Shown here in pieces: positions 5,768 through 64,000 of a stretch of 64,000 nucleotides of DNA (positions are counted from its first letter, which is position 1; every line of letters starts with the position of its first letter). The notes beneath the pieces were generated by a model, which saw nothing but the letters and a program-made list of their open reading frames with translations, was not told the DNA's origin and did not search any database. This stretch comes from an uncultured bacterium (GTDB lineage: Bacteria > Bipolaricaulota > Bipolaricaulia > RBG-16-55-9 > DRJF01). The translations under genes were made by a program, and so were the position numbers. The stretch covers positions 2,239-66,238 of the forward strand of contig CAJXGD010000005.1 of assembly GCA_913053845.1 (NCBI GenBank). The letters are read 5' to 3'.

Positions 5768-6486
5768 AGCTCTCCGGCCAGCACCTGGCCAAGCGTTACG
5801 GCCGAGCCCCCTTGGTGGTTGATGACATCTCGCTCGCGGTCGACAGCGGTCAGATAGTAGGCTTGCTTGGCCCCAATGGCGCGGGCAAGACGACCGTCTT
5901 TCATCTGATCATGGGCCTGATCGCCCCGGAGACCGGTGAGGTCCGGCTGGACGGGCGGGAGATCACCCGTCTGCCCTTCTATCGTCGCGCCCGGCTAGGG
6001 CTGGGCTATCTGGCGCAAGAGCCCTCGGTCTTCCGCCACCTGACCGTGCGGCAGAACCTGCTGGCCATCCTGGAGAATATGCCCCTCTCGTCTGCCCAGC
6101 GGCGCACGCGGGCGGACCAATTATTGGACAAGCTGGAGATCGGTGCCTTGGCAACCCGCCAGGCCGACCGGCTCTCTTCCGGCGAGCGTCGGAGGGTGGA
6201 GATCGCCCGCGCGCTGGCCCGTGAGCCCGGGTTTCTCCTGCTAGATGAGCCTTTCTCCGGCGTGGATCCCCTCTCGGTCGAAGCGGTGCAACAGATCGTG
6301 CGCCAGCTCAGCCAGGAGGGCATCGGCATCCTGCTCACCGACCACAACGTGCGGGAGGCGCTGCGGGTGACCGACTATGCCTATCTGATTTACAGTGGCA
6401 AGATCGTCTCTGAGGGTAGGCCAGACGAGATTGCCGCTGATCCCTTGGCGCGCCGGCTCTATCTGGGCGAGCGCTTTGAGCTTTAA
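5764..6486 (+). CDS. lptB: LPS export ABC transporter ATP-binding protein
   Basis: Walker A GPNGAGKTT. Signature LSSGERRRVEIARAL. LptB-like C-terminal region …ADPLARRLYLGERFEL. 240 aa. Confidence 0.8.
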   Translation: MKLSGQHLAKRYGRAPLVVDDISLAVDSGQIVGLLGPNGAGKTTVFHLIMGLIAPETGEVRLDGREITRLPFYRRARLGLGYLAQEPSVFRHLTVRQNLLAILENMPLSSAQRRTRADQLLDKLEIGALATRQADRLSSGERRRVEIARALAREPGFLLLDEPFSGVDPLSVEAVQQIVRQLSQEGIGILLTDHNVREALRVTDYAYLIYSGKIVSEGRPDEIAADPLARRLYLGERFEL

Positions 6487-11188: not shown

Positions 11189-11264
11189 TGGTGGGCCCAG
11201 CAGGACTCGAACCTGCGACCGACCGCTTATGAGGCGGGAGCTCTAACCACTGAGCTATGGGCCC
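11189..11264 (-). tRNA. tRNA-Met (anticodon CAT; elongator type, or Ile2 if lysidinylated)
   Basis: The reverse complement reads GGGCCCATAGCTCAGTGGTTAGAGCTCCCGCCTCATAAGCGGTCGGTCGCAGGTTCGAGTCCTGCTGGGCCCACCA. This is a cloverleaf with anticodon loop CTCATAA and an encoded CCA end. Confidence 0.85.
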
Positions 11265-33775: not shown

Positions 33776-33852
33776 CGGGACGTGGCGCAGCCTGGTAGCG
33801 CACTGGTCTGGGGGACCAGGGGTCACCGGTTCAAATCCGGTCGTCCCGACCA
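33776..33852 (+). tRNA. tRNA-Pro (anticodon GGG)
   Basis: CGGGACGTGGCGCAGCCTGGTAGCGCACTGGTCTGGGGGACCAGGGGTCACCGGTTCAAATCCGGTCGTCCCGACCA. 7-bp acceptor stem, anticodon loop CTGGGGG, CCA encoded. Confidence 0.85.
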
Positions 33853-49993: not shown

Positions 49994-50208
49994 CTCACCT
50001 CACTTTCGCTGCTAGTTGGGCAGCGAGCCCAGTATAGTAAATCGGAGATGAACCCACGGTGAATCGGAGATGAACATGCAGTCATGGCAATCCGCCATCA
50101 CCGTGGCCTGGCTCCAACTCCTCATGACAAGGCCTCCCGGCGGCGTTGTCCCAGTAAGTCCATTTTACTCAGTCGGCCAGACCTAGTAGTATACTGGCAG
50201 CGCGAGAT

Positions 50209-50401
50209 ATGGACCTACTCAGTTGGATCACCGCGGTCTTCGTCCAATACGGCTATTGGGTTATCTTTTTCGGCGTGATGCTGGAGAACGCTGGCATCCC
50301 TCTGCCGGGCGAGACGGTCCTACTGGCAGCGGCTTTCTTCGCCTGCCAGGGGCACTTCAATCTGGTTATCGTCATCGCTGTGGCTGCCGTAGGCGCAGTG
50401 T
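50209..50401 (+). pseudogene. Duplicated 5' fragment of the dedA gene (first 64 codons plus promoter region), truncated
   Basis: 50164-50401 is about 85-90 % identical to 51146-51382. It encodes MDLLSWITAVFVQYGYWVIFFGVMLENAGIPLPGET…AVGAV, then diverges into the 36-bp repeat copy 2. Confidence 0.6.
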
Positions 50402-50680
50402 TCGCAGACTGTACTTCGACAAAGAGCCCACTTGCAAACGCCAGATCAGTCTCGGCTGCAGCGCGGTCAAGTGCAGCGCCTGGTTAGACATGTAGCTCTG
50501 GTGAGCTTGACCCGACCCCCCGGCTCGAAAGCCGATGTTGAAGGTAAGAAATCCAGGAACGAGTGACAAGCCGATGCTCCTGAGCTCTGTTCGACAACAG
50601 AGGCCGACAATTCGAGCAAGGGGCGAGCCCATTGCTCGTGTGATTCGATTCACCAGACGAGAGTAGGTTTGTGCTTTCAT
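50372..50680 (-). CDS. Hypothetical 103-aa protein
   Basis: ATG 50680 preceded by an AGGAGGTG RBS: MKAQTYSRLVNRITRAMGSPLARIVGLCCRTELRSIGL… No recognised family. Confidence 0.3.
   Translation of the reverse strand: MKAQTYSRLVNRITRAMGSPLARIVGLCCRTELRSIGLSLVPGFLTFNIGFRAGGSGQAHQSYMSNQALHLTALQPRLIWRLQVGSLSKYSLRTLRLRQPQR
50410..50445. repeat. 36-bp direct repeat, copy 2
   Basis: tgtacttcgacaaagagcccacttgcaaacgccaga. Confidence 0.7.
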
Positions 50681-50912: not shown

Positions 50913-51189
50913 AATCAAGCACTCAAGGCCTATAGAGGGCAAGCCGCTCTCCCAGGTGGCCCATCCGCCCCGCCCACTTGAGCCATATCCATAGGTTGTG
51001 TAACATCACCGCGATCCCCAGCAGTAGCAAGCGCAGCCCCACCCGCCGCTACGCAGTGCGTGCTCGTGCCTGTTCCTACACCCGGTGGTTGCTCTCGATC
51101 CCGAACCGCCTGCGGTACTTTCCCCCCAAGTGAGTGCAAGAAAGTTCTTTACTCAGTCAGCTAGCCCTGGTATACTGGCGGCGCGAGAT

Positions 51190-52497
51190 ATGGATCTACT
51201 CAGTTGGATCACTGCGGCCTTTGTCCAGTACGGCTATTGGGTCGTCTTCTTAGGTGTCATGCTGGAGAACGCCGGCATCCCCTTGCCGGGGGAGACGATC
51301 CTGCTGGCGGCGGCTTTCTTCGCCTACCAGGGGCACTTCAATCTGGTTATCGTCATCGCTGTGGCCGCCGTAGGCGCAGTGCTCGGTGACAACGCCGGCT
51401 ACTGGATCGGTCGCCGCGGCGGGAGATCGCTGCTCGAGCGCTACGGAGGTTATCTGCTCCTGAACGCGAAGCGACTAGCTGGCTTGGAGCGCTTTTTCGA
51501 GCGTTACGGCGCCAAGGCGGTCTTCTTCGCCCGCTTCGTCACTGGATTTCGCGTCTTTACCGCCCTCTTCGCCGGAGCCGGGCAGATGCCCTGGCCGAAG
51601 TTTGTGTTCTATAATGCCGCCGGTGCGCTCATCTGGAGCATTACCATGGGGTCCTTGGGCTATCTTTTCGGCTACAGCTGGGAGGCACTGGCCCATTGGC
51701 TGGGGCGTGGCAGCTTGGTCGCCGGGGCGGCGCTGCTGCTCATCTTTGCGCTTGTCTGGATTCGCCGTCGCCTGCCGGCCTGGCAACGTGCACTCGATGG
51801 CTGGCTGCCCCGCACCCTGGGCCTGCGCGAGCTGCTGATCAGCTTCGCCACTCTGCTCAGCTTGGGGCTCTTCTCCAAAGTAGCTCAGGACGTGGCAGCC
51901 AACGAGTCGCAGCGCTTCGACCTGACTATCTTACAGACCATCCACCGGGATCTGCCCGCTGGTTGGGAGTCGCTGATGAAGGCCATCACTGCTCTGGGGT
52001 CGTTTAAAAATCTCGGCGGACTTTTGATCATCATCCTGCTAGTCCTGCTCTGGCGGCGGCGCTGGAGGATCGCGCGATTTCTGGCCGTCACCGGTCTGCT
52101 CACCCCAGTTTTTATCGAGGGGCTCAAGCTGGCTTTCCATCGGGCTCGTCCCCATCTCTGGCCCGCACCATTCGAAGCTTCGTACAGCTTTCCCTCTGGC
52201 CACGCGCTGGGCTCGCTGGTCATCTACGGTGTGCTGGCCTATCTGGTCGACAAGACCTGGCCGCGCTGGCGGCCGGCCATCTGGAGCGTCTACCTGGTGC
52301 TGGTGTTGACGATCGGCTTCAGCCGACTATATCTGGGTGTGCACTGGCCTACCGACATCTTGGGTGGTTGGGCCGCCGGAGGACTGCTGCTCTTCGGGCT
52401 GATCTACTGGCGCGAGGGACGCTATCGCCTGCCGGCGCTGGTTTGGCTTGAGCTGCGCAAGTTGTGGAACCGAGTAGGGACGAATAGCCGTAGCTGA
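51190..52497 (+). CDS. DedA (VTT/SNARE-associated) domain fused to a PAP2 phosphatase domain
   Basis: Start placed at ATG 51190 (MDLLSWITAAFVQYGYW…), 36 codons into the longer ORF from 51085. N-terminal DedA segment (…DNAGYWIGRRGG…). C-terminal PAP2 motifs KLAFHRARP…SFPSGHA…SRLYLGVHWPTD. Confidence 0.8.
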   Translation: MDLLSWITAAFVQYGYWVVFLGVMLENAGIPLPGETILLAAAFFAYQGHFNLVIVIAVAAVGAVLGDNAGYWIGRRGGRSLLERYGGYLLLNAKRLAGLERFFERYGAKAVFFARFVTGFRVFTALFAGAGQMPWPKFVFYNAAGALIWSITMGSLGYLFGYSWEALAHWLGRGSLVAGAALLLIFALVWIRRRLPAWQRALDGWLPRTLGLRELLISFATLLSLGLFSKVAQDVAANESQRFDLTILQTIHRDLPAGWESLMKAITALGSFKNLGGLLIIILLVLLWRRRWRIARFLAVTGLLTPVFIEGLKLAFHRARPHLWPAPFEASYSFPSGHALGSLVIYGVLAYLVDKTWPRWRPAIWSVYLVLVLTIGFSRLYLGVHWPTDILGGWAAGGLLLFGLIYWREGRYRLPALVWLELRKLWNRVGTNSRS

Positions 52498-52533: not shown

Positions 52534-52562
52534 TTGACAGCAGGAAAAATCTTTGCTAAAGT
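52534..52562 (+). promoter_or_regulatory. Putative sigma70-type promoter of the dynamin/Ehr operon (TTGACA-N17-TAAAGT)
   Basis: TTGACA at 52534-39, 17-nt spacer, TAAAGT at 52557-62. A 150-nt leader follows, with a G/C hairpin just before the ATG at 52711. Confidence 0.4.
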
Positions 52563-52710
52563 TTAGGCCAATCCAGCGTGATGGAGTCCACAAGCAAGTG
52601 CCCTAGCGGGCTAATGACTCCTACCCAGGTGAATAACCTCTGGTAGGAGCGAGCCGGCATAGGGTATCCCTAGCTAGTGCTAGAAGACCCCTGCCAGGGA
52701 AGGGGTTTCT

Positions 52711-54534
52711 ATGGACCATAGCCAGCAAGATTCAATGGCCCAGGCGGTGCTCAGCCGGCAAGAGAGGAAGGCCGACGCGGGGCTCAAATCTCTCCTGGAG
52801 CAGAGTTTAATAATCCTTAACCAGCTCGGTCCGGAGTTCACCACCGACGGTGAAAACCTGCTGGCCTTACAGTCGCGTCTGCTGGCTGACCGCTTTCAGT
52901 TGGCCGTGCTGGGCCAGTTCAAACGGGGCAAGAGCACGCTGCTCAACGCGCTGCTCGGCGAGGAGCTCCTGCCCACCTCCGTCCTGCCTCTCACCGCTAT
53001 TCCTACTTTCTTGCAGTGGGGTCCCAGACTCCGCGCCCGGGTCGTCTATCAGGATGGTCGCTCGGCAGAAGAGTTCTGCGGAGAGGTACCCGCTGAGCTG
53101 GCGGCCTTTTTGGCGAAGTTCGTCACCGAGGAGGTCAATCCCCGGAACCGCTTGGGCATCTCGCAGGTGGAGGTCTTCCATCCGGCTCCCCTGCTGAAGG
53201 GTGTAGTGCTGATCGACACGCCGGGCATCGGCTCGACCCTGCGGCATAATACGGAGACCACCCTGAGCTTCTTGCCCCAGTGCGATGCGGCCCTGTTCGT
53301 CGTATCGGCCGATCCGCCGATCACCGAGGTCGAAGTGAAGTTCCTCCAGGCCATTCTGCCCCAGGTGGCTCGGCTCTTCGTCGTGCTGAACAAGATAGAT
53401 TACTTGAGAGAGACGGAGCGCAAGACCGCGCTGAATTTTCTCGCCCAGGTGCTGAACCAGGAGGTGGGGCTTAAGGGGGAGATCCCGATCTTCTCCGTCT
53501 CGGCGCGCCAGGGGCTTGAGGCCCGCAGCTCTGGGGATAGCCGGCGCTGGTCCCAGAGCGGTGTGGAAGCTCTCGAACGCTACCTACTGGACTTCCTGGC
53601 CTATGACAGATCTCGGGCGCTCAAGCAAGCCCTAGCGCAGAAGGTCGCCGACATCCTCGCCGACGTCTTGATGCGACTGGAGATCTCGATTCGCTCGCTG
53701 CAGTTGCCGTTGACAGAGCTGGAAGAGCGCTTGCAGCTTTTCCAGCAACAGCTCCAGGAGGCAGAAGCCCAGCGCATCATCGCCGCTGACCTGCTGCAGG
53801 GAGATCAGCGGCGCTTGGCCGCCCGTCTCGAGGAGCAGGCCGAGAGCTTGCGCCGAGGGGCCCGGGATCATCTTGGGGAGATCGCCAAGAGAGAACTGGC
53901 CCGGCAGGGCGATCAGCTCGATGAAGGTGCTGTAGAGCGCGTCTTAGCTGAGGCGATCCCGGCCTTCTTCGCCGGGCAGCTCGAAGCGCTCTCGGGGGAG
54001 TTCGCGCAGCAGGTGGCCGAGACGCTGCGCCCTCACGAACAGCGGGCTGATGAGCTAGTTGAGGCCATACGCCGCGGGGCGGCGGAGCTCTTTGAAGTGC
54101 CCTATCGCGCGCCGCAGAGCGTCCGTGCCTTCGAGGTGCGCCGCCGGCCATACTGGGTGACTCAACGGCCGGATGCCTCTTTAACCTCGATCTCTGCCGG
54201 CCTGGCGGAGCGGCTGTTGCCTGCCCACCTGCACCGCGTGCGTGCGGCAAAACGGCTAATGGCTCAGGTCGAGTCACTGGTGCTGCAGAACGTGGAGAAC
54301 CTGCGTTGGGCGACCCGGCAGAACCTGGATCAGGCCTTCCGTCGCTTCGCCGCTAGCCTGGAAGAGCGCCTCCAGGAGACGATCGCCGCCACCCAGGGGG
54401 CCATTCAAGCGGCCTGGACCAAACGCCAGGAGAGCGCTCCGGCCGTCTCCGCCGAGGTCAAGCGCCTGGAGTCGGTGGCCGCAGAGCTGCGCCAGGTCCA
54501 AGCTCGACTGGAAAAGGCAAACTTATGGAGCTGA
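52711..54534 (+). CDS. Bacterial dynamin-like GTPase
   Basis: G1 GQFKRGKSTLLNALLG. G3 VLIDTPGIGS. G4 LNKID. Long coiled-coil stalk. 607 aa. Confidence 0.8.
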   Translation: MDHSQQDSMAQAVLSRQERKADAGLKSLLEQSLIILNQLGPEFTTDGENLLALQSRLLADRFQLAVLGQFKRGKSTLLNALLGEELLPTSVLPLTAIPTFLQWGPRLRARVVYQDGRSAEEFCGEVPAELAAFLAKFVTEEVNPRNRLGISQVEVFHPAPLLKGVVLIDTPGIGSTLRHNTETTLSFLPQCDAALFVVSADPPITEVEVKFLQAILPQVARLFVVLNKIDYLRETERKTALNFLAQVLNQEVGLKGEIPIFSVSARQGLEARSSGDSRRWSQSGVEALERYLLDFLAYDRSRALKQALAQKVADILADVLMRLEISIRSLQLPLTELEERLQLFQQQLQEAEAQRIIAADLLQGDQRRLAARLEEQAESLRRGARDHLGEIAKRELARQGDQLDEGAVERVLAEAIPAFFAGQLEALSGEFAQQVAETLRPHEQRADELVEAIRRGAAELFEVPYRAPQSVRAFEVRRRPYWVTQRPDASLTSISAGLAERLLPAHLHRVRAAKRLMAQVESLVLQNVENLRWATRQNLDQAFRRFAASLEERLQETIAATQGAIQAAWTKRQESAPAVSAEVKRLESVAAELRQVQARLEKANLWS

Positions 54535-54959
54535 GCGAGGGCGATCGTTCAGAGGTGAACCTGCGGCACCGCCGTGTGATTCGCCTAAATCTGCTCATCT
54601 TGGAGGAGACGATGGCCGAGGTCGAGCGGCTGATCGGCGCTGAAGGAGAGGGGATCCTGCGGCGACGGCGCAACCCGCTGAGCACCGCCACGCGCCAGGA
54701 GCTCTTGGACCGGATCGAGCAGGTGCGCCGAACATTGGTCGAGCTGAAGGATTCCTTCGGCTTTGCGGTCGAAGAGCAGGATGTGACGCGGATGATCCGC
54801 GCGCTGCTCTCCCATCAATGGACGGTGCTCTGCGACACTGAATCGCGCCGGCTGCGGGGTTATGGGGAGCCGGCGCCGGAGTTGGCGGCGCGGCTAGATC
54901 CCTCAATTGCCAAGTTGATCCGGCTCGTCGAAGGGATGGAAGCGTGCCTGGTGAGGTGA
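54525..54959 (+). CDS. Hypothetical 144-aa protein (translationally coupled to the dynamin gene)
   Basis: Overlaps the dynamin stop by 10 nt. Predicted helical, no motif. Confidence 0.4.
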   Translation: MELSEGDRSEVNLRHRRVIRLNLLILEETMAEVERLIGAEGEGILRRRRNPLSTATRQELLDRIEQVRRTLVELKDSFGFAVEEQDVTRMIRALLSHQWTVLCDTESRRLRGYGEPAPELAARLDPSIAKLIRLVEGMEACLVR

Positions 54960-54963
54960 GCTG

Positions 54964-55959
54964 ATGGGACAAAGTGTGAGCAGGGAGGTCGATCTCATGC
55001 CATGTCTCTTCCGCGAGCAGGCGCTGGACGAGGCCGGCCGGGCGGTCTATCACTGCCGGGCGGGAGGAGACTTCGTGCTGGGAACCGTGGGAAGTTTGGC
55101 CGTCCAGCAGATCTGTGGGAGCTGTCTCGTGCCGGCGGAGTATGCGCCGGAGCGCCAGCCCTGTCTGTACCTGGTGCCGCTGCGGGTATTTGGGTCAGCA
55201 GGAACCCCAACCTTCCTGCTCTGCCGCTGGTTTTACCACAGTGGGCCGCGCAGCTGGGTGCACAGTGCTGAGCAGCAGTGTCCTTGTCCTCACTGGTTTC
55301 CCCATCCAGGGAGACAGCACTCGCCGGCGATCGAGGCGATGAACGCGGGGGTGATTCGGGACGCGCTGGCGCTCTACCGAGAAAGGGAGGCACTCCTCAG
55401 CGCGCTGGGCACCCCAGAGGGCGGTTGCCCGATCTGTCAGCGGGTGAGCTGCAAGTCAAGCTCGTTCCTGAACGGTTTGAGCGCTGCTGAGCGGACGCAC
55501 CTCTGCCAAGCGCACCGCGCTCAGCAGGGGAGTGCTCTGCGCCTACCCTCGCAAGAGGAGCAGTTGCAGCTTTTGGAGGAGGCAGAGCGTGCGCTGGAGC
55601 AACTGGCACAGCAATTGGCACAGCCTGGGCAGTTACCCAATCATCGGATAAATATACCCTTTTGGCTAAAGCGGCACCTGCGGCGTCGGCGGACGAGAGC
55701 TGAGCTGGGGGAGGCGATCTGCCCGGCCTGCACGCGGGAGACTGAATGGATCGCTCCGGCGATGAAGGAATTGATCGGCTTACTGCTGCGTGATCCGGCT
55801 GGACCTCGGCTCTATACGCACTCCGCCGGCCTGTGCGCCAACCATTTCGGTCAGCTGCTGGCGCAGGTAGGCCAACCGTGGCATGAACACCTACTCTCTC
55901 TGCAGCGGCAGGCGCTCGCGCAACAAAGGGCCAGGCTGGAGCAGCTGCAGCGCGGCTGA
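54964..55959 (+). CDS. Cys-rich protein with repeated CPxC…LCxxH modules
   Basis: CGSC, CPCPH, CPICQ…(21 aa)…LCQAH, and CPACT…(32 aa)…LCANH. 331 aa. Starts 5 nt after the previous stop. Confidence 0.5.
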   Translation: MGQSVSREVDLMPCLFREQALDEAGRAVYHCRAGGDFVLGTVGSLAVQQICGSCLVPAEYAPERQPCLYLVPLRVFGSAGTPTFLLCRWFYHSGPRSWVHSAEQQCPCPHWFPHPGRQHSPAIEAMNAGVIRDALALYREREALLSALGTPEGGCPICQRVSCKSSSFLNGLSAAERTHLCQAHRAQQGSALRLPSQEEQLQLLEEAERALEQLAQQLAQPGQLPNHRINIPFWLKRHLRRRRTRAELGEAICPACTRETEWIAPAMKELIGLLLRDPAGPRLYTHSAGLCANHFGQLLAQVGQPWHEHLLSLQRQALAQQRARLEQLQRG

Positions 55960-55969
55960 GGCACACATA

Positions 55970-56920
55970 ATGACCACACGAATCCTCTACAACTTGCTCC
56001 AAGTCGCGGTCGTGATGACCTTTGCCCCCCTGATGGCCGGTGTGCTGGCCAAACTCAAGGAGATGGTGCAGTCCAGGCGTGGGCCGAGCGTCTTCCAGCC
56101 CTACCGGGATCTGTGGAAGCTCTTCCACAAGGATGAGGTCATCCCTGAGGAGAGCTCCTGGATCTTTCGGGTGACGCCCTATATCGTGTTCGTCACACCC
56201 ATCTTTGTGACACTGCTCATCCCCGTGCTCACCAGCTACCCGCTCTTCTTCGCCTTTATGGGCGACATGCTCGGCGTGGGGTTCGTCTTGGCGCTGGGCG
56301 GGTTCTTCGCGGCACTGGCTGCGGTGGACACGGCCAACCCCTACGGCCCAATGGGAGCCAGTCGCACGCGCATGGTGAGCTTCTTGGCCGAGCCGGTCTT
56401 CATGATCGTCTTCTTCACCGTCTCCTTCGTGGCCGGCTCCACCATCCCCTACATCGTGCAGCAGAGCTGGGTGACCCCTCTCGCAAATTTCTTTGAGCCG
56501 GCGCACGTGCTGCTGCTGCTCGCGTTCTTCATGCTGATTACCGCCGAGACTGGGCGCATCCCCGTGGACAACCCCTCGGGCCACTTTGAGCTGGCTATGA
56601 TTGACGAGTCCAAAGGACTGGAGTATTCAGGTCAAGGCGCGGCACTGATGAAGTGGGGCGGTTGGATGAAGTTCTTCGTGTTGGTCTGCATCTATCTCAA
56701 CGTGCTGGTCACGCCCTGGGGCCTGGCGGGCGGCCAGGCAGCGGGCGAGGTATTTCTGGCAATCCCGCTGGTGCTGCTCAAGATATTGGCCTTCGTGCTC
56801 GTGCTGGTGGTGATCGAGTCGTCGCTGGCCAAGCTGCGTCTCTTTCGCATCAGCGAATTTCTCGGCGCGGCGTTTGTCACCGCAGTGGCGGCGATGATCG
56901 CCCAATTGTTCGCGCTCTAA
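55970..56920 (+). CDS. NuoH/HyfC(HycD)-like membrane subunit of an energy-converting hydrogenase-related complex
   Basis: MTTRILYNLLQVAVVMTFAPLMAGVLAKLKEMVQSRRGPSVFQPYRDLWKLF is the NuoH/HycD signature. Eight TM helices. Confidence 0.8.
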   Translation: MTTRILYNLLQVAVVMTFAPLMAGVLAKLKEMVQSRRGPSVFQPYRDLWKLFHKDEVIPEESSWIFRVTPYIVFVTPIFVTLLIPVLTSYPLFFAFMGDMLGVGFVLALGGFFAALAAVDTANPYGPMGASRTRMVSFLAEPVFMIVFFTVSFVAGSTIPYIVQQSWVTPLANFFEPAHVLLLLAFFMLITAETGRIPVDNPSGHFELAMIDESKGLEYSGQGAALMKWGGWMKFFVLVCIYLNVLVTPWGLAGGQAAGEVFLAIPLVLLKILAFVLVLVVIESSLAKLRLFRISEFLGAAFVTAVAAMIAQLFAL

Positions 56921-56938
56921 ACGGGAGGGAGTCACAAA

Positions 56939-57634
56939 ATGTCGCAAGGGTTCGAGCCGCTGTTGAGCGCACTGAATGCCCTGGCTGGAGGGCTCTTCCT
57001 GCTGTCGGCCTTCGGGATGGTGGCCACGCGCCAGGTGCTGGGATGTCTGCGCTTCTTCATCGCCCAGTCGCTGCTACTGGCCGCCAGCGCTTTTCTGCTA
57101 GGAGCCGCTCCTCTCTCGGCCCACCTGATCGCCGTGGGCCTGCTGACTATAATTACCAAGTCCTGGTTGTTGCCCTGGCTGCTGCGGCGCATGGTGCGCC
57201 AGGAGGTCTACACCCGGCGCGAGATCACCCAAGCGGTCAACATCCCCAGCTCGCTGCTCATCGCCTTGGGCCTGGTGCTGGGAGCCTATTTCCTGAGCGC
57301 TCCTTGGCTGCCGGCCGGGGCGGCTGCGGGTGCCGGTTTCGTAAGGATCAACCTGCCGATCGGCCTGGCCGGCCTGCTGCTGGGAGCTTACACCCTGGCG
57401 GTGCGTCGCGAGGCGCTGCCGCAGCTCTTGGGCCTGCTGGCCATGGAGAACGGGGCCTTCTTCGCCGGGATCGCTGTCGCGCCGGGGTTGTCGCTTATCG
57501 CCGAGCTGGCCGTGGCCTTCGACGTGCTCGTCTTGGCCTTTGTCCTGGGCGTGCTCACCCGCATGATCCATGAGCGAACCGGCAGCACCGAGGTCGGTCG
57601 GCTGGCCGCACTCAAGGAGGAGCCCTTCCGATGA
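56939..57634 (+). CDS. HyfE-like small membrane subunit
   Basis: 231 aa, about seven TM helices. Its position and size correspond to HyfE/MbhD-type subunits. Confidence 0.65.
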   Translation: MSQGFEPLLSALNALAGGLFLLSAFGMVATRQVLGCLRFFIAQSLLLAASAFLLGAAPLSAHLIAVGLLTIITKSWLLPWLLRRMVRQEVYTRREITQAVNIPSSLLIALGLVLGAYFLSAPWLPAGAAAGAGFVRINLPIGLAGLLLGAYTLAVRREALPQLLGLLAMENGAFFAGIAVAPGLSLIAELAVAFDVLVLAFVLGVLTRMIHERTGSTEVGRLAALKEEPFR

Positions 57635-59073
57635 TCCTGATCGCTATTCTAGCGCTGCCGCTGCTGGCGGCAGCAGTTTGCGGCCTGTCCGGCTCCGAGC
57701 GGTGGTCCCCGCGGGTGACGCTGCTGGCGGCGCTGGCGAACTTGCTGCTGGCCGGAGAGGTAGCGCTGCGGGCGGCCGGCGGAGAGACCATCGTCGCCTT
57801 GCCCCACTGGATCGCCGCCGACGGCCTGAGCGCCTTGATCGCGCTGCTGATCACCGCCGTGGGGACGAGCGCCGCGCTCTTCTCCTGGGGCTATATGGCA
57901 CACTCGACTCAAAAGCCACGGGCACTGCGACTCTACTACGTTAATTTCAACTTGTTCCTCTTTGCCATGCTGGCCGTTCCCCTGCTGGCCGAGCCCAATC
58001 TGGTCTGGATCGCCGTGGAGCTGACCACGCTCTTCTCGGTATTATTAGTCTCTTTCGCTGACACCCATGACGCCCTGGAGGCGGCCTGGAAGTACGCGGT
58101 GCTCACCTTGTCCGGGGCGGCGATCGCCCTCTTCGGCTTCTTGCTGCTCTTTTGGGCCTGGCAGACCGCCGGGGGCGGGCCGTATAGCTGGGCCACTCTG
58201 CGCGCCGCGGCCGGCGCTATGCCACCTCGGCTGCTGCAGGCGGCCTTCTTGCTCATCCTGGTGGGCTTTGGGGCCAAGGTGGGCCTGGTGCCACTGCACA
58301 CCTGGCTGCCCGATGCCCATAGCCAGGCCCCCACACCGGTCTGCGCTCTGCTCTCCGGCGTGGAGACCTCAGCAGTGCTCTACGTGATATTGCGCCTGTT
58401 GCCCCTGCTGGGCCCCGCCAGCCAAGGGCGTGCCTGGGCGCTGGCCTTCGGCCTGCTCTCGGCGGGCGTGGCCTCATTCTTGCTGCTGCGGGTGCGCGAC
58501 TATAAGCGACTTTTCGCCTTTTCTACTGTAGAACAGATGGGGATCGTGCTGGCCGCTGCCGGGCTGGGCTCCGGCGCGGCTAGCTATGCCGCCCTGCTCC
58601 AAATCGTAGCTCATGCGCTCGGCAAATCATTCTGCTTCTACGCCGCCGGCTCGGCGGCGCTCTTGAGCGGGACCACCGAGATCGCCGGGGTGCGCGGTCT
58701 GCTGCGCAGCTCGCCGCTCGGCGGTATCGCCCTGCTGCTGGGAGGTCTGACCATCGCCGGGGCGCCCCCCTTGGCGCTCTTTTTGAGCGAGTTTTCCATC
58801 CTGAAGGCCGGCCTGTCCGGCGGGCAATACCTGGCAGTAGCGCTGCTCACGCTGTTCATTGCAGTAGCTTTCTTCGGCATCTTACGCCACATACTGCCCA
58901 TGGTCTTCGGTAAGCCCCTGCCGCAATCTGTCAACAGGAAACTGCCCCGCAGTGTTGTGCTGACACTGCTGCTGGCCGCGCTGCCGCTCTTCGTGCTGGG
59001 GGTCTATCTCCCGGAGCAGCTTAGCGCGCTATTACGCGTTGCGGCCGCGGCTCTGACCCACTTGGCGAGGTGA
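57631..59073 (+). CDS. NuoN/NuoM/HyfF-like antiporter-type membrane subunit
   Basis: 480 aa with 14 TM helices. Contains the conserved TWLPDAHSQAPTPV motif (…LHTWLPDAHSQAPTPVCALLSG). Confidence 0.8.
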   Translation: MILIAILALPLLAAAVCGLSGSERWSPRVTLLAALANLLLAGEVALRAAGGETIVALPHWIAADGLSALIALLITAVGTSAALFSWGYMAHSTQKPRALRLYYVNFNLFLFAMLAVPLLAEPNLVWIAVELTTLFSVLLVSFADTHDALEAAWKYAVLTLSGAAIALFGFLLLFWAWQTAGGGPYSWATLRAAAGAMPPRLLQAAFLLILVGFGAKVGLVPLHTWLPDAHSQAPTPVCALLSGVETSAVLYVILRLLPLLGPASQGRAWALAFGLLSAGVASFLLLRVRDYKRLFAFSTVEQMGIVLAAAGLGSGAASYAALLQIVAHALGKSFCFYAAGSAALLSGTTEIAGVRGLLRSSPLGGIALLLGGLTIAGAPPLALFLSEFSILKAGLSGGQYLAVALLTLFIAVAFFGILRHILPMVFGKPLPQSVNRKLPRSVVLTLLLAALPLFVLGVYLPEQLSALLRVAAAALTHLAR

Positions 59074-59080
59074 TCGCATC

Positions 59081-60661
59081 ATGAAAGATATGCAAGCGCT
59101 CTGCGAGCAGGCCCGGCAGCTTTGGCCCAGCGAGGTCCAGGCTCTCAGGATCGACGAGGCCGGCCGGCTGGGCGAGCTGCGCTGCGCTCCCCAGACGCTG
59201 CCTGAGCTGGCGGACTGGTTGTTCAACGAGTTGAGCTATCAGTTTGCCGGGCTGATCGTCGAAGAGGCTGGGCGGCACTGGGAGCTGCGCTACCTATTTT
59301 ACGGTCAGGCCGGCCGGCTCTATCTCTTGAGCGAGCAACCCTTGGCCGAGAGGAGTTTTCCCAGCCTCAGCACCAGGGTGCATGCCGCCGACTGGCAGGA
59401 GCGTGAGGCCGAAGACCTGTTCGGATTGGTCTTCAGCGGCCATCCCCGTTTGGGAGATTTTGTTCTGCATGATGACCTCTGGCCGGAGGGACTGGAGCCC
59501 ATGCGCCGCTCATTCACCGGCACCCGGCCGGTGAGCGACCGCCAGGCGCGCACCGATTGGCGACCGAGACGGATCGTGCAGGCCCCAGGGGCGTTCGTCA
59601 TGCCCATTGGACCCATCTATGGGGGAGCCACCGAGTCGGCCCACTTCCTGCTGGAGACGGTCGGTGAAGAGGTGATTCGCGCCTTCCCACGGCTTTTCTA
59701 TCAATACCGTGGGGTCGAAAAACGCGCCGAGGGTGCGCCGTTCTCCCAGGGCTTGCTGCTGGCCGAGCGCTTCGCTGCCCGCAGTGCTTTCGCCCACGCG
59801 CTGGCCTACTCGCGCGCCATTGAGGCTTTGAGTGCGGTTGAGCTGCCCCCGCGCGCCCGGCAGTTGCGGGTCTTCTTCGCCGAGCTGGAGCGCTTCCGGC
59901 ATCACCTGGGCACCATTGAGGGGATCTGCACCTCGACCGGGCTGGCCGTGGCCGCCAGTCAAGCAGCCCTGCTGGAAGAGGAGGCGCTGAGGCTCTCCGG
60001 CGCGCTGGCGGGCCATCGTTATCTCTTCGGCCTGGCAGCGCCCGGCGGATTGGCCCACGATGTGCCGGCGGCGGCCTGCCGCGAGGCGGTCAGTCAGGCC
60101 CAGGCTATCCGGCGACGCGCGCAGGAGCTGCACCAGCGCCTGCGCCGCTCCTCCAGCTTCCTCGATCGCTTGGAGCAAGTGGGCCTCATCTCCCCGGAGC
60201 AGGCCCGCGATCATGGCCTGGTCGGCCCGGTGGCCCGCGCTTCGGGGCTCTCTCGCGATCTGCGGCAGGCACAGCCCTACTCCGGCTATCCATCGTGCTC
60301 ATTTAGAGTTCCCTGTGAGCGGGAAGGGGATGGCTACGCGCGACTGCGGGTCTTCTTCGCCGAGATTGATCAAGCGGTGGAGCTCATGGCTCAAGCGGCG
60401 CAAGATCTGCCGCGCGGCCCGGTCAGGGCAGAGTGCCGGCCGGCGGCAGGAGCGGCGCTGGGCTGGGTCGAGGCTCCGGTGGGTGCGGCCTTCCATTGGG
60501 TCCGTCTGGATGAGAGCGGCCGGATCATGCGCTATCGGCTGATGACGCCGTCCTTTGCCAACTGGCACGGCTTCCACCTGGCCGCCGAGGGCTTTGCCTT
60601 TCAGGATTTTCCGATTATCCTGGCCACCTTTGGGCTGTCGGTGGCCGAGAACGATCGTTAG
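59081..60661 (+). CDS. Fused NuoC-NuoD / HycE-like large subunit lacking the NiFe-binding cysteines
   Basis: The N-terminal roughly 170 aa are NuoC-like (…ELRYLFYG…RVHAADWQEREAEDLFG). The remainder is NuoD/HycE-like. The RxCGxCxxxH site reads GGATESAH. The C-terminal DPCxxCxxH/R site reads GLSVAENDR. Confidence 0.8.
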   Translation: MKDMQALCEQARQLWPSEVQALRIDEAGRLGELRCAPQTLPELADWLFNELSYQFAGLIVEEAGRHWELRYLFYGQAGRLYLLSEQPLAERSFPSLSTRVHAADWQEREAEDLFGLVFSGHPRLGDFVLHDDLWPEGLEPMRRSFTGTRPVSDRQARTDWRPRRIVQAPGAFVMPIGPIYGGATESAHFLLETVGEEVIRAFPRLFYQYRGVEKRAEGAPFSQGLLLAERFAARSAFAHALAYSRAIEALSAVELPPRARQLRVFFAELERFRHHLGTIEGICTSTGLAVAASQAALLEEEALRLSGALAGHRYLFGLAAPGGLAHDVPAAACREAVSQAQAIRRRAQELHQRLRRSSSFLDRLEQVGLISPEQARDHGLVGPVARASGLSRDLRQAQPYSGYPSCSFRVPCEREGDGYARLRVFFAEIDQAVELMAQAAQDLPRGPVRAECRPAAGAALGWVEAPVGAAFHWVRLDESGRIMRYRLMTPSFANWHGFHLAAEGFAFQDFPIILATFGLSVAENDR

Positions 60662-60677
60662 TCGGAGAGGAGGAATA

Positions 60678-61448
60678 ATGAGCGAATGGGTCTTGCAAGG
60701 TCTGCGCACCGGGATCAAAACCACGCACTATCCCGACGCCAGAGAGCGCGCGCCGGGCGTCTCACCCGGTCGGCCGGTCGGGGGCAGTTATCCCGCAGAT
60801 CAAGCTGAAGCGCTGCTGGCCCGCTGTCCCACCGGCGCGCTGCGCTATCAGGATGGGCAGGTGATCATTGACTATCGGCGTTGCGTGCATTGCTTCCGCT
60901 GCGCTCGGGAGCTGAAAACGCCCCTCACCTGGGAGATGGATTACGAGTGGGCTGGGGCCAATACGCCAGGATTGACCGGGCCTTTCGGCCGCTCGGTGCA
61001 TATTCTGGTAGTGGACACCGGGGACTGCGGTGCCTGCCTCAATGAGGTGAAGCAGCTCAATAACCCATACTACAACATGCACCGATTGGGCTTCTTCATC
61101 ACGCCCACCCCCCGACAGGCGGACATTCTGCTCGTCGTCGGAGCGCTGAGCGCTCCGATGCGCGAGCCGCTCCTACAAGCCTACCAGGCGATGCCCGACC
61201 CCAAGCGGGTGGTGGCCGTGGGAGCCTGCGCCCTGTCAGGCAGCCTATTTGGGCCCAGCTTCGCCTGCGGCACGGGCGTGAGCGAGCTGCTCCCGGTGGC
61301 GGTAGAGGTGCCGGGCCAGCCGCCGCCGCCGCTGGCCATCCTGCACGGCCTGCTGGTCGCTGTGGGACGCCGGCCGGCCGTCCCGCTCAGCTCACCGAAC
61401 TTGCCTATGCCCATACCTGTAATAGAGGAAGTGCACAGCCGGCCATGA
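60678..61448 (+). CDS. Single-cluster ferredoxin-like module fused to a NuoB/HycG-like small subunit
   Basis: ATG 60678 after a GGAGAGGAGG RBS. N-terminus CPTGAL…RRCVHCFRCA (one 4Fe-4S binding motif). Then DTGDCGAC…AVGACALSG…FACGTG (NuoB-type cluster ligands). Confidence 0.75.
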   Translation: MSEWVLQGLRTGIKTTHYPDARERAPGVSPGRPVGGSYPADQAEALLARCPTGALRYQDGQVIIDYRRCVHCFRCARELKTPLTWEMDYEWAGANTPGLTGPFGRSVHILVVDTGDCGACLNEVKQLNNPYYNMHRLGFFITPTPRQADILLVVGALSAPMREPLLQAYQAMPDPKRVVAVGACALSGSLFGPSFACGTGVSELLPVAVEVPGQPPPPLAILHGLLVAVGRRPAVPLSSPNLPMPIPVIEEVHSRP

Positions 61449-63589
61449 CCCTTGCCACCTTGATCGGGATCTTTTTCGCCCTCTGCGGCGCCGGCCTGCT
61501 GGCTACCCTGGCGCTCCCGGAGCGTCAGGCGCCGCGCGTGCTGGCCTGGAGCGGGGCGCTGGCTTCGTTCTTTATCCTCTGGGCTGGCGCGGCTGCCCTG
61601 CTGGGCGGAGAGAGTTTCCGGCTCTCACTCTGGACGCTGCCCCTGCTGGGACGATTGAGCTTGGGTCTGGACCGGATGGGAGGGCTCTTCCTGCTGATCG
61701 GTGGGCTGGTGACGCTGCCCGTCTCCGTCTTCTCCCTGGGCTACTTGCAGCGCTATCAGGGCAAGTATAACCTGCGCGCTTTCGGGCTGCTCTATCTGGC
61801 GCTGCTGGCCTCACTGGCGCTGATCCCCTTGGCCGCGGACGCCTTCACCTTCCTGATCGCCTGGGAGGCGATGTCGCTGCTCAGCTTCTTCTTGGTCGCC
61901 TTCGAGCATGAGCGCCAGAGAGCGGTCCAAGCGGGCTATCTGATGCTGGCCGTAGGTGAGCTGGGCACGCTGGCCGTCGCCTTGGCCTTCCTGCTGCTGG
62001 CAGGCGCCGCCGGAGGGCTAGATTTTCCCGCGCTGCGAGCGTCGTCCGTCGGGCTGGGCGCGACCATGCGCTGGACCATCTTCCTGCTCTCGTTCTTCGG
62101 ATTTGGGGTCAAAGCCGGACTGGTGCCGGTCAACTTCTGGCTGCCGCGCGCCCACCCGGAGGCCCCGGGCAACGTCTCCGCGCTGCTCTCCGCCGTGATC
62201 CTCAACCTGGGTATCTACGGCATCTTGCGCTTCAATGGTGATCTCTTGCCGATCAACTCAGTCGGGCCGGGCCTGGTCGTCCTGGCGATCGGTGTGCTCT
62301 CCGCGCTGGTGGGCATTCTCTATGCCACCATCGAGAACGATCTGAAAACTCTGTTGGCCCACAGCTCGATCGAGAACATGGGCATCATCACCGCCAGCCT
62401 GGGCGCGGGGTTTATTTTCACCGCTACCGGCCATCCGGTGCCGGCGGCCATCGCCTTCTTAGCGGCTCTCTATCATTTGGTCAATCATTCGGTCTATAAG
62501 GCGTTGCTCTTTCTGGGGGCCGGGACGCTCGATGCCCAACTGGGCACCCGTGATCTCGACCGTTTGGGCGGCCTGCTGAAGCGTATGCCGTGGCTGGGGC
62601 TGTTCATGCTGATCGGGGCCTTGTCCATCGCCGGGCTGCCACCGCTGGGCGGCTTCGTCAGCGAGTGGTTGAGCTTACAGGTGATGCTGCGCAGCGTCGA
62701 GCTGGCCTCCGTAGGGATCAAAGTCGCCTTCGCCTTGGCCGGGGTGGGACTGGCGCTCACCCTGGCGCTGGCGGTCACCTGCTTTGTGAAGACTTTTGCG
62801 ATGGGCTTCTTAGGCTTGGCACGCTCTGAGGTAGCCGAAGCAGCACGGGAGGGGCCGCGCTCGGCGCTGATCCCTCTGGGCTTTCTGGCCGGTCTCTGCC
62901 TGCTGTTGGGACTGGGGGCCACCTACGTCATTCCGGCGCTGGACGGTGTCGTCAGGCCCTTAGCGGGGACCAGCGCAGCCGCAGCCTTGGTGCCACCGTT
63001 CTTCGCCACCCATCCCAAGCAGGCTGAGCTGCCACCGGCCTTCGCCGCCGATTTTCATGATTTGGGCGCTCAACTGGGCAAGAATTTTCTGCCGGGGCGA
63101 GGGCTGGTAGTGCTGCATCGCGGTGGAGCGAAGAACCCGGTAATATTCGCCATGTCCACCGCCTACACTTTTGTGGTGCTCCTGCTGCTGCTGCTCGTCG
63201 TCTATCTGGCTGTGCACTGGGGTCCGGCCTGGCGGCGTCAGGTGACCTACCAGCCGCGCTGGGCAGGGGGGCTGAAAAAGCTCTTGCCGGAGATGACCTA
63301 TACCGCCACGGGCTTTGCCAATCCGGTGCGCGTGATCTTTGAGGCGATCTTCCGGCCCACGGTCGTCGAGAACACCCAAGACGCGGCGCGAGAGCACTTT
63401 CGCACGCTGATCCGGCGGGAGCACCGGCAAGTCCATCTGATCGACCGATTGGTGCTGAAGCCGATCGCCTGGGGTGCTTTGGCCATCGCGGACGGCCTGG
63501 CGCGGATGCATCATGGGCGGATCAACGCCTACGCCGGCTATGGGCTCCTGGTGTTGCTGATCGTCTTGATTCTGGCCCGACTGCTCTAG
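61445..63589 (+). CDS. NuoL/HyfB-like antiporter-type membrane subunit with a long C-terminal extension
   Basis: 714 aa. NFWLPRAHPEAP motif. Sixteen or more TM helices. Start overlaps the previous stop (ATGA). Confidence 0.8.
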   Translation: MTLATLIGIFFALCGAGLLATLALPERQAPRVLAWSGALASFFILWAGAAALLGGESFRLSLWTLPLLGRLSLGLDRMGGLFLLIGGLVTLPVSVFSLGYLQRYQGKYNLRAFGLLYLALLASLALIPLAADAFTFLIAWEAMSLLSFFLVAFEHERQRAVQAGYLMLAVGELGTLAVALAFLLLAGAAGGLDFPALRASSVGLGATMRWTIFLLSFFGFGVKAGLVPVNFWLPRAHPEAPGNVSALLSAVILNLGIYGILRFNGDLLPINSVGPGLVVLAIGVLSALVGILYATIENDLKTLLAHSSIENMGIITASLGAGFIFTATGHPVPAAIAFLAALYHLVNHSVYKALLFLGAGTLDAQLGTRDLDRLGGLLKRMPWLGLFMLIGALSIAGLPPLGGFVSEWLSLQVMLRSVELASVGIKVAFALAGVGLALTLALAVTCFVKTFAMGFLGLARSEVAEAAREGPRSALIPLGFLAGLCLLLGLGATYVIPALDGVVRPLAGTSAAAALVPPFFATHPKQAELPPAFAADFHDLGAQLGKNFLPGRGLVVLHRGGAKNPVIFAMSTAYTFVVLLLLLLVVYLAVHWGPAWRRQVTYQPRWAGGLKKLLPEMTYTATGFANPVRVIFEAIFRPTVVENTQDAAREHFRTLIRREHRQVHLIDRLVLKPIAWGALAIADGLARMHHGRINAYAGYGLLVLLIVLILARLL

Positions 63590-63607
63590 GGCGACGAAGG
63601 GAGGACT

Positions 63608-64000
63608 ATGGCGCTCTTTACCGGAGAGTTGCAGCGGGCGCTGGCCGCGCCGGGCTGTCCGCTCTGTCGGCTGGTGCGCCATCAGGAGGAGGCCTGGATC
63701 TGGCATACGCTCTATGAGTTCACCGGTGACCCGGGGGTGCGCAGTCGGCTAGATGCCAGCTATGGCCTCTGTCATGAGCACGCGCATCTGCTGCGCCGGG
63801 TGCTGACCGGCCACCGGCTGCTGGGCGGCAGCGGGGTAGCGCGCATCTACGAGACGGTGGTGCTCAGATATAGCGAGCAGTTGGCCGCACTCCAGGGGGC
63901 AGGGGGCAGACTGAAGCAGTGGCTGGGCTCTGAGCGCCAGCAGCTAGCCAAGCTGGAGCTCAAGGGTTGTCCGCTCTGCCTGTCCAGTCAGCAGGCAGAG
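63608..64000 (+). CDS. Cys-rich CPxC…LCxxH-module protein (paralog of 54964-55959), 3'-partial at the window end
   Basis: CPLCRLVRHQEE…(36 aa)…LCHEH. A second CPLC sits at the window edge. RBS GGGAGGA. Confidence 0.45.
   Translation, partial: MALFTGELQRALAAPGCPLCRLVRHQEEAWIWHTLYEFTGDPGVRSRLDASYGLCHEHAHLLRRVLTGHRLLGGSGVARIYETVVLRYSEQLAALQGAGGRLKQWLGSERQQLAKLELKGCPLCLSSQQAE

Follow-up and report, generated by a model that had tools for sequence, protein, structure and literature searches.

The ten-gene run at the 3′ end of a 64,000-nt stretch of contig CAJXGD010000005.1, from an uncultured bacterium of the GTDB lineage Bipolaricaulota (this whole stretch is hereafter called the window), is probably a fluoride-inducible stress operon placed behind a fluoride riboswitch. 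The operon studied (52534–64000, + strand) joins two modules that elsewhere usually lie each behind its own fluoride riboswitch. In the first, a soluble dynamin-like GTPase (g1) is accompanied by a partner domain protein (g2) and by a Cys/His protein of the DUF6062 family (g3); the second is a six-subunit membrane complex that resembles complex I and hydrogenase-4 and is of the hydrogenase-related (Ehr) type (g4 to g9), followed by a second DUF6062 protein (g10). Fluoride-riboswitch operons are a known kind of system, within which the joining of an Ehr-type complex to a dynamin/g2/DUF6062 module is new.

The fluoride riboswitch of the operon leader

The operon leader is 150 nt long and holds the aptamer. 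A predicted sigma70-like promoter (52534–52562, + strand), composed of TTGACA-17-TAAAGT with a TG extension and preserving 10 of the 12 consensus nucleotides, is followed on the gene strand, 6 nt past the –10 hexamer, by a match to the fluoride riboswitch aptamer (crcB motif, RF01734) at 52568–52630, which stops 80 nt short of the g1 ATG. This match scored 32.6 bits with Rfam (E-value of 7.9e-6 in a 14-kb search and of 1.2e-7 in the leader alone) and spans the full 64-position model with one non-standard pair. The P3 stem is intact, P1 retains 3 of its 4 pairs, and the 14 invariant columns of alignment A2, where the window is one row among 15 sequences, are all kept. It was the only fluoride riboswitch match in a scan of the 64 kb and was detected in E-value mode, having been missed by Rfam at the gathering threshold; it was also absent from the original prediction made for this DNA. 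Moreover, the dynamin and complex orthologues of other genomes carry the same aptamer element in the same position, and a putative fluoride-responsive regulation of the operon is, at the level of sequence comparison, well supported.

The minimum free energy (MFE) fold predicted for the leader is unusually stable (–72.4 kcal/mol, z of –4.9 against shuffles), and in this fold a long hairpin takes up the 3′ half of the aptamer together with downstream sequence. This alternative hairpin (52598–52665, + strand), in which the aptamer 3′ half pairs with 52632–52665, is a candidate expression platform, and in the modelled structures the competition between aptamer and downstream hairpin would follow the usual logic of such platforms. 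A second predicted hairpin, GC-rich and placed at 52685–52708 (+ strand), lies over the Shine-Dalgarno-like GGAAGGGG and is followed by UUUCU and the ATG.

Fluoride riboswitches were also found beside the homologous complexes of other bacteria. When GTDB was scanned with each species represented by a single genome, 400 relatives were recovered, and the best 80 loci were examined. The NuoCD-like protein g7 has thousands of relatives, the closest being about 60–65% identical and distributed among many phyla, and the gene order NuoH-HyfE-NuoN-NuoCD-FdNuoB-NuoL (FdNuoB being the ferredoxin-NuoB fusion) is kept in the 80 loci, which come from more than 12 phyla. Rfam RF01734 at its own cut-off revealed 14 fluoride riboswitches in the seven complex loci tested, and a covariance model built from those hits returned 124 riboswitches in the 1.46 Mb of complex loci, with scores inflated for these loci by its training on the same family. 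At least 450 nt of DNA preceded the NuoH-like gene in 66 loci, and 65 of these had a same-strand riboswitch there, none being found in the remaining one; 56 of these riboswitches were within 500 nt of the gene, and in nine cases the distance was greater but all intervening genes were co-directional. With the custom model, nine hits among the 65 scored below 30 bits. Four of these nine were re-tested with Rfam, as were L005 (34.5 bits) and L029; the hits of L007, L048, L074 and L005 were above the cut-off, that of L029 reached 26.1 bits and that of L011 was not found.

The genes recurring beside these complexes point in the same direction. They include CrcB (20 loci), DUF190 (21 loci), enolase (22 loci) and a pair of MutS domain V (MutS-V) ATPases (11 loci), in addition to a 240-aa P-loop protein, a metallophosphoesterase, Usp, MFS, dynamin, g2 and DUF6062 proteins, while a Na/H exchanger, phosphofructokinase and Na/Pi-PhoU are also found near the complex. 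This recurrent neighbour set is the known fluoride regulon. Of the genes of that regulon (Weinberg 2010; Baker 2012, cited in PMC11139923), those for crcB, DUF190, enolase, MutS-like proteins, Usp and the Na/H exchanger are found behind the same aptamer in the related loci; the operon resembles it in having the aptamer in the 5′ leader, on the gene strand, upstream of a gene class already listed. It differs from it in lacking an exporter, in having an aptamer just below the Rfam cut-off, in counting a dynamin, the g2 domain and DUF6062 among its members, and in placing two modules behind one riboswitch. As an example of the separate arrangement, the verrucomicrobial (Verrucomicrobiia) locus L002 has, between 5817 and 20388, five fluoride riboswitches within 15 kb, each heading another unit: crcB-DUF190, the complex, a dynamin gene, an M20 peptidase with enolase, and a MutS-like gene.

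Several observations weigh against fluoride control of the operon. The window aptamer is 1.4 bits short of the Rfam gathering cut-off (34 bits) and departs from the consensus by a C-A mismatch in P1 and by GU in place of CC in the linker. The competing hairpin has no U-tract after it, the one covering the ribosome-binding site stays in both the free and the aptamer-sequestered modelled folds, comparison of the folds of the free and the aptamer-blocked leader gave no clear terminator/anti-terminator or sequestor/anti-sequestor pair, and a terminator scan of the leader found none. No fluoride exporter gene was found in the operon or in the whole 64 kb. To the inflated scores of the custom model it is added that the genes of the loci were re-called with a custom per-locus codon-usage model and then clustered, and that most of the loci are from metagenome-assembled genomes. 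The riboswitch match could be a decayed or chance resemblance, the operon being constitutive or otherwise controlled and the cross-genome pattern not applying to it. The low E-value obtained in the leader and the conservation of every invariant A2 column make this very improbable, as do the location of the element exactly between the promoter and the first gene and the fact that cut-off-passing aptamers likewise vary at the positions where the window deviates. Furthermore, the nearest relative of the dynamin (L082, 55% identity) is preceded by an above-cut-off aptamer, 72 nt before its start.

Concerning the genes placed downstream, the list of open reading frames (ORFs) of the region contains ten + strand ORFs, g1 to g10, all co-directional and reaching the window end. 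The original prediction of ten consecutive + strand genes, running from a sigma70-like promoter at 52534 to the end of the window, was thereby recovered in full. It had also described overlapping junctions, which were found as a 10-nt overlap at 54525 (g1/g2) and as ATGA at 57631 (g5/g6) and 61445 (g8/g9), and gaps of 5–17 nt, a range that needs a small correction, since the gaps measure 4, 7, 18, 7, 16 and 18 nt and two of them are slightly larger. A scan for signals inside the operon gave promoter-like and terminator-like matches near chance (10 terminators against 8.2 ± 3.1 expected). Because all gaps are of at most 18 nt or are replaced by overlaps, and internal signals do not exceed chance, a single transcription unit comprising g1 to g10 is plausible. 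Pfam profile searches of each ORF were consistent with every product previously proposed, with no family for g2, weak matches for g3 and g10 and a match below the cut-off for g5; no operon protein reached an equivalog cut-off in an NCBIfam scan.

The NiFe-less membrane complex

The six subunits of the complex lie between 55967 and 63589 on the + strand. The NuoH/HycD/HyfC-like membrane subunit g4 (55967–56920; NADHdh, 119 bits) starts at an ATG within an ORF that opens at 55883. The HyfE-like membrane subunit g5 (56939–57634) was assigned from its conserved position together with two sub-cut-off matches, to Pfam Oxidored_q2 (21.4 bits, cut-off 26.1) and to the NCBIfam hydrogenase-4 membrane subunit HyfE (54.6 bits, cut-off 136). 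It is followed by the NuoN/HyfF-like antiporter-like subunit g6 (57631–59073; Proton_antipo_M, 157 bits), whose top NCBIfam match, below the cut-off, is hydrogenase-4 subunit F. The fused NuoC-NuoD/HycE-like subunit g7 (59081–60661) carries Complex1_30kDa and Complex1_49kDa domains, and g8 (60678–61448; Oxidored_q6; ATG within an ORF that opens at 60555) fuses a single-cluster ferredoxin-like domain to a NuoB/HycG-like subunit. The last one, the NuoL/HyfB/HycC-like antiporter-like subunit g9 (61445–63589; Proton_antipo_M, 177 bits), is closest to HycC and MbhH, its best solved relative being HycC (7Z0S_C, 7e-59). It preserves the motifs WEAMS, GVKAGLVP, HLVNHSVYK and FVSEW, which, from what is known of complex I and Mrp, we assign to channel residues of transmembrane helices (TM) 5, 7, 8 and 12. 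Across the examined loci, the median identity to the window proteins was 57–62% for five of the subunits (59% for g5, whose homologues were found in 71 loci). The NuoH-like subunit is the best conserved, with a median of 81% over 69 loci, and is 75–84% identical across phyla.

The metal sites of the complex were examined by aligning g7 to HycE (7Z0S_E) and g8 to HycG (7Z0S_G) and MbhJ (6CFW_J). In g7, the HycE segment RvCgiCgfaH is replaced by ERFAARSAFAH and the C-terminal CxxC is gone; the large-subunit C-terminus reads LSVAENDR, free of cysteine, in the 14 homologues aligned, and all four NiFe cysteines are missing in each of these 14 large subunits. The earlier claim that the complex has no NiFe site and is of the Ehr type thus holds for g7 and for its aligned homologues. 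Compared with complex I 49-kDa subunits, GPQHP is changed to GPIYGG and LDYVS to FAARS in g7, at positions that we take to be those of the quinone-site His and Tyr of NuoD. In g8, the cysteines C50, C69, C72, C75, C117, C120 and C184 are invariant among the 52 homologues in which their conservation was counted. Four of them belong to the N-terminal ferredoxin-like half and account for one cluster, and the other three to the NuoB-like proximal cluster, whose fourth cysteine (PGCPP, position 214) is Gln in g8 and, across the 52 homologues, Asn in 19, Cys in 13, Gln in 8 and His in 5. This variability suggests a three-Cys or 3Fe cluster, or an open coordination site.

With these features, the complex falls within the Ehr definition of PMC6349859, presenting large and small subunits like those of group 4 hydrogenases and antiporter-like subunits, the NiFe cysteines being missing, and it lacks the features that define formate hydrogenlyase and complex I. 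The likeness to Ehr covers both the group-4-hydrogenase-like subunits devoid of Ni/Fe ligands and the Mrp antiporter-like membrane subunits. In PMC6349859, citing Marreiros 2013, Ehr complexes are presented as having unknown function and a guessed formate dehydrogenase partner; unlike that published pairing, the clade described here lacks a formate dehydrogenase partner, and a fluoride riboswitch precedes it in nearly every case. Relative to the E. coli formate hydrogenlyases FHL-1 and FHL-2 (7Z0S), homologues of HycD/HyfC, HyfE, HyfF, HycE/HyfG, HycG/HyfI and HycC/HyfB are present, whereas the NiFe cysteines, FdhF, HycB/HyfA and a separate HycF/HyfH are not, a single-cluster ferredoxin domain being instead fused to the NuoB-like subunit, with the fourth proximal Cys unconserved. 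It differs from respiratory complex I (NDH-1) in that g7 has no NuoD quinone-site His and Tyr and g8 no full four-Cys N2 set. It shares with the Mrp antiporter and with the membrane arms of MBH and MBS the MrpA/D-like subunits g6 and g9 with the motifs of their class, and differs from them by its NuoCD/NuoB-type peripheral arm with Fe-S ligands; no MrpB, E, F or G equivalents were found in the Pfam search of the operon proteins.

Genes annotated as "formate hydrogen lyase" have been listed among crcB-motif targets since 2010 (Weinberg 2010, PMC2864571), and probably correspond to this complex. In a 2024 review, their presence in the fluoride regulon is read as a sign that metabolism shifts to fermentation (PMC11139923). 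Under that view, which is the one taken by the review and, for a formate dehydrogenase–Ehr enzyme, by the proposal in PMC6349859, the complex would be a working fermentative or respiratory redox enzyme, either a formate hydrogenlyase or an Ehr complex fed by a distant FdhF-like protein, and its control by fluoride a switch to fermentation. The closest solved relatives of its subunits are indeed the E. coli FHL subunits HycE, HycG and HycC, its subunits are ordered much as in hyfCEFG(H)IB, it has seven invariant Fe-S cysteines, and the window does encode a molybdopterin oxidoreductase (6483–8543, minus strand). However, this enzyme, the sole FdhF-like gene in the window, is placed on the other strand about 44–46 kb away; the absence of a formate dehydrogenase from the operon had been noted before, with the distance given as 47 kb. 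Moreover, no formate dehydrogenase-like, HycB/HyfA-like or maturation family recurs in the 80 complex loci, every aligned homologue lacks the four NiFe cysteines, neither the His nor the Tyr of the complex I quinone site is kept, and the fourth proximal-cluster position alternates between Asn, Gln, His and Cys across the family. Because it has neither a NiFe site nor a recognizable quinone site, the complex cannot be a formate hydrogenlyase, and a redox enzyme of either kind is considered unlikely. A true formate hydrogenlyase or formate dehydrogenase–Ehr enzyme was rejected as a candidate on the missing NiFe cysteines and the lack of a recurring formate dehydrogenase partner.

Other features were observed in the complex loci. 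Two tandem NuoL-like genes follow the NuoB-like gene in L017, L021, L025, L030, L035 and others, and three do so in L045. In Casimicrobiaceae and betaproteobacterial loci (L042, L056 and L057), very large ORFs of 1445–1543 aa are found directly upstream of the riboswitch and complex. In L007, a single-copy match to a CRISPR direct-repeat Rfam family (6326–6362; 37.4 bits, cut-off 45), about 400 nt upstream of the riboswitch, is probably spurious.

The dynamin-like GTPase, g2 and the DUF6062 proteins

The first gene of the operon, g1 (52711–54534, + strand), encodes a soluble bacterial dynamin-like GTPase of 607 aa with a Dynamin_N domain (95 bits, cut-off 27). Its best solved relatives are the Nostoc BDLP (2J68, 6e-23), the M. 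tuberculosis IniA (6J72) and the Campylobacter DLP (5OWV). IniA is induced by a chemical stress. The G1, G3 and G4 motifs, GQFKRGKST (the P-loop), DTPG and NKID (NKxD), are invariant in alignment A3, composed of 12 dynamins from the window and the complex loci, and no hydrophobic (paddle) segment was detected in g1. Similar to the bacterial dynamin-like proteins (BDLP, IniA, DLP1/2 and LeoABC), it combines Dynamin_N, including G1, G3 and G4, with a long helical region; it is distinguished from them by the fluoride riboswitch control of its subfamily, by the g2 partner domain, separate or N-terminally fused, and by the frequent pairing with enolase and DUF6062.

The context of this subfamily was assessed by scanning the A3 alignment over metagenome contigs, which yielded 80 dynamin-centred loci with 27–55% identity. 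In their 630 kb, 117 riboswitch matches were found, with at least one in 64 of the 80 loci, and the Rfam model at its own cut-off confirmed the riboswitch in 7 of the 10 dynamin loci tested. Among the 74 loci with upstream DNA, the riboswitch ended at most 500 nt from the estimated dynamin start in 49, typically at 20–150 nt. The neighbours in these loci were enolase (28), Usp (9), DUF6062 (8), MutS-V (7), a longer dynamin paralog (7), CrcB (6) and g2 (5), and genes of the complex were present in only 3 of the 80. Conversely, in the complex-centred loci, 22 of the 26 dynamin genes were downstream of a same-strand riboswitch, usually their own. From these distributions, the dynamin subfamily is a member of the fluoride regulon in its own right, its adjacency to the complex reflecting shared regulation.

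A coupling of the GTPase with the ion-translocating complex had been implied from their common operon. The search for this neighbourhood in other genomes showed that it does recur, since 22 of 81 loci have a dynamin gene no more than 10 kb from the complex and one further case, L053 (Actinomycetes), has, like the window, the fused order of dynamin and complex behind one riboswitch. On this basis the dynamin could be a dedicated partner of the complex that inserts, assembles or clusters it, or that shapes the membrane around it. A specific functional link of this sort is not supported, however, by the rest of the distribution: a dynamin is absent from the 10 kb around the complex in 59 of the 81 loci, the dynamin of most complex-centred loci is placed behind a riboswitch of its own, together with enolase, an AAA protein or a phosphoesterase, and any complex gene is confined to the three dynamin-centred loci mentioned. 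Since 49 of the 74 dynamin genes are riboswitch-led and so few are accompanied by the complex, the connection between the two is better explained by shared fluoride control than by a dedicated partnership, to which little credence is given.

The second gene, g2 (54525–54959, + strand), encodes a 144-aa helical protein of an unnamed family, with no match in Pfam, NCBIfam or PADLOC. At E ≤ 1e-3 this family comprises 639 cluster representatives, mostly of 130–180 aa; the single-sequence structure model of g2 had a pLDDT of 54. A hidden Markov model (HMM) of five g2 homologues matches residues 1–145 of the dynamin paralogs of 675–709 aa found in nine loci, and iterated g2 searches drifted into dynamins owing to a real g2-dynamin fusion. 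Because the g2 model covers the N-terminus of the long dynamin paralogs, g2 is a dynamin partner domain, fused or adjacent.

A further possibility is that g1, g2 and g3 form a LeoABC-type anti-phage dynamin system located beside the complex by chance. PADLOC matched g1 to LeoA (63 bits) and to LeoBC (48 bits). These matches reflect the generic dynamin fold, though, g2, g3 and g10 had no PADLOC hit, and the dynamin subfamily is riboswitch-led in two thirds of its loci, where it accompanies enolase and not defence genes, so an anti-phage role appears extremely improbable. A LeoABC defence system was rejected as a candidate, the LeoA and LeoBC protein pair not having been found.

The Cys-rich proteins g3 and g10 complete the operon. 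The former (54964–55959, + strand; 331 aa, 15 Cys), identified by a weak Pfam match and by hhalign, is composed of a Cys-rich N-terminal region of 140 aa and a C-terminal DUF6062 domain with two CPxC...LCxxH modules, residues 143–330 aligning to the DUF6062 alignment A5 with a probability of 97.9% (E of 6e-13). The window end cuts g10 (63608–64000, + strand) after 131 of its 248 aa, the fragment giving 23.5 bits with Pfam. Its full-length version, read from the overlapping contig L001 (4144–4890), has a precomputed PF19538 hit and two CPxC...GLCxxH modules, and it is followed on that contig by a 94-nt spacer with a TTGACA-17-TAGAAT match and then by the next gene. The C/C/C/H module, present twice, is invariant or nearly so (at least 90%) in 39 DUF6062 homologues. 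Gene runs led by a riboswitch were seen to combine DUF6062 with the dynamin, the complex or a Na+/H+ exchanger, the last in L164, where DUF6062 comes after the riboswitch-led exchanger. In L162 (6655–8690), the DUF6062 gene overlaps the end of a gene coding for an MgtE magnesium transporter, and no riboswitch was detected. DUF6062 may thus be tied to cation transport more generally.

Proposed function and significance

In the favoured explanation, transcription would start at the sigma70-type promoter and the leader would fold into the fluoride riboswitch aptamer. With more fluoride in the cytoplasm, this aptamer, once bound, would hold its 3′ half out of the downstream hairpin, allowing the ten genes to be expressed. 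The complex would most likely move protons or sodium, like the riboswitch-controlled Na+/H+ antiporters, which are the second most common class controlled by fluoride riboswitches (PMC11139923). Since the entry of hydrogen fluoride (HF) acidifies the cytoplasm (PMC11139923), such movement would offset both this acid load and the fluoride accumulation driven by the pH gradient, and the two remaining Fe-S sites of the complex would power or gate ion transport. The role in ion homeostasis is favoured because cation and proton transport is a theme common to the complex, to the Na+/H+ exchangers and to the settings in which DUF6062 occurs. Fluoride induction in this organism, the ion moved and the energy source are all proposed from sequence comparison, and two considerations count against so simple a transporter: the strongly conserved Fe-S ligands argue for a continuing part of redox chemistry and for a purely secondary antiporter being too simple a model, and the sequence appears to point neither to a particular ion nor to a driving force.

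The dynamin module, for its part, would most likely take care of membrane upkeep or remodelling under fluoride stress, or make up for an inhibited Mg-dependent nucleoside triphosphatase. In the latter case extra dynamin could make good the inhibited fraction, which also seems to be the purpose of co-regulating enolase, phosphofructokinase, MutS-like ATPases and phosphoesterases. The idea of compensation stems from the composition of the co-regulated set (enolase, phosphofructokinase, kinase-like proteins, phosphoesterases, MutS-like and AAA ATPases, and dynamin), because these are all Mg-dependent phosphoryl-transfer enzymes, the class that fluoride inhibits. The roles considered here for the dynamin, g2 and DUF6062 would all follow from such associations. 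There is also a small chance that the riboswitch-linked Ehr clade is no respiratory or fermentative enzyme but a dedicated, complex I-like fluoride-defence pump expelling protons or even HF or fluoride, with the former NiFe/quinone pocket, the three-Cys cluster and the highly conserved NuoH-like subunit as its repurposed parts, and that the dynamin with g2 and the DUF6062 proteins are membrane fluoride-resistance factors.

If the fluoride-inducible stress operon is accepted, Ehr complexes and one dynamin subfamily, both devoid of an assigned physiology, gain a defined inducing signal, and several orphan proteins become experimentally approachable through fluoride. The label in use is also corrected, since a NiFe hydrogenase cannot be built from the regulon genes analysed, which also lack a partner formate dehydrogenase; the "formate hydrogen lyase" genes of the regulon would fit better in the ion- and pH-homeostasis arm of the response. 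Should it be true that the dynamin, the g2 domain and DUF6062 aid fluoride tolerance, they would extend the known resistance toolkit, which would be relevant to microbes engineered for organofluorine degradation. The operon had been put forward as unlike any described system. This is maintained for the dynamin, because no paper linking fluoride riboswitches with dynamin was found in a literature search that did not take in the key 2012 paper, but not for the complex, given its listing as a target since 2010. Similarly, no paper placing the 144-aa g2 family or DUF6062 in the fluoride regulon was found in the literature search, and, with the 2012 paper outside the search, none that treated the riboswitch-linked "formate hydrogen lyase" beyond its label or noted the missing NiFe site.

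Some additional features of the window were recorded. A 221-nt direct repeat with 89% identity occupies 50189–50409 and 51170–51390; in its upstream copy, the 5′ end of a VTT/DedA-PAP2 fusion gene (51085–52497) is duplicated in truncated form, giving rise to a 92-aa ORF at 50209–50487. The AT skew is strongly negative (–0.19 to –0.25) across the membrane-subunit genes, between 56001 and 64000, which fits the T-rich codons of hydrophobic proteins encoded on the + strand. Finally, two tRNA genes, at 11192–11264 (– strand) and 33776–33849 (+ strand), were the sole above-cut-off Rfam matches in the window.

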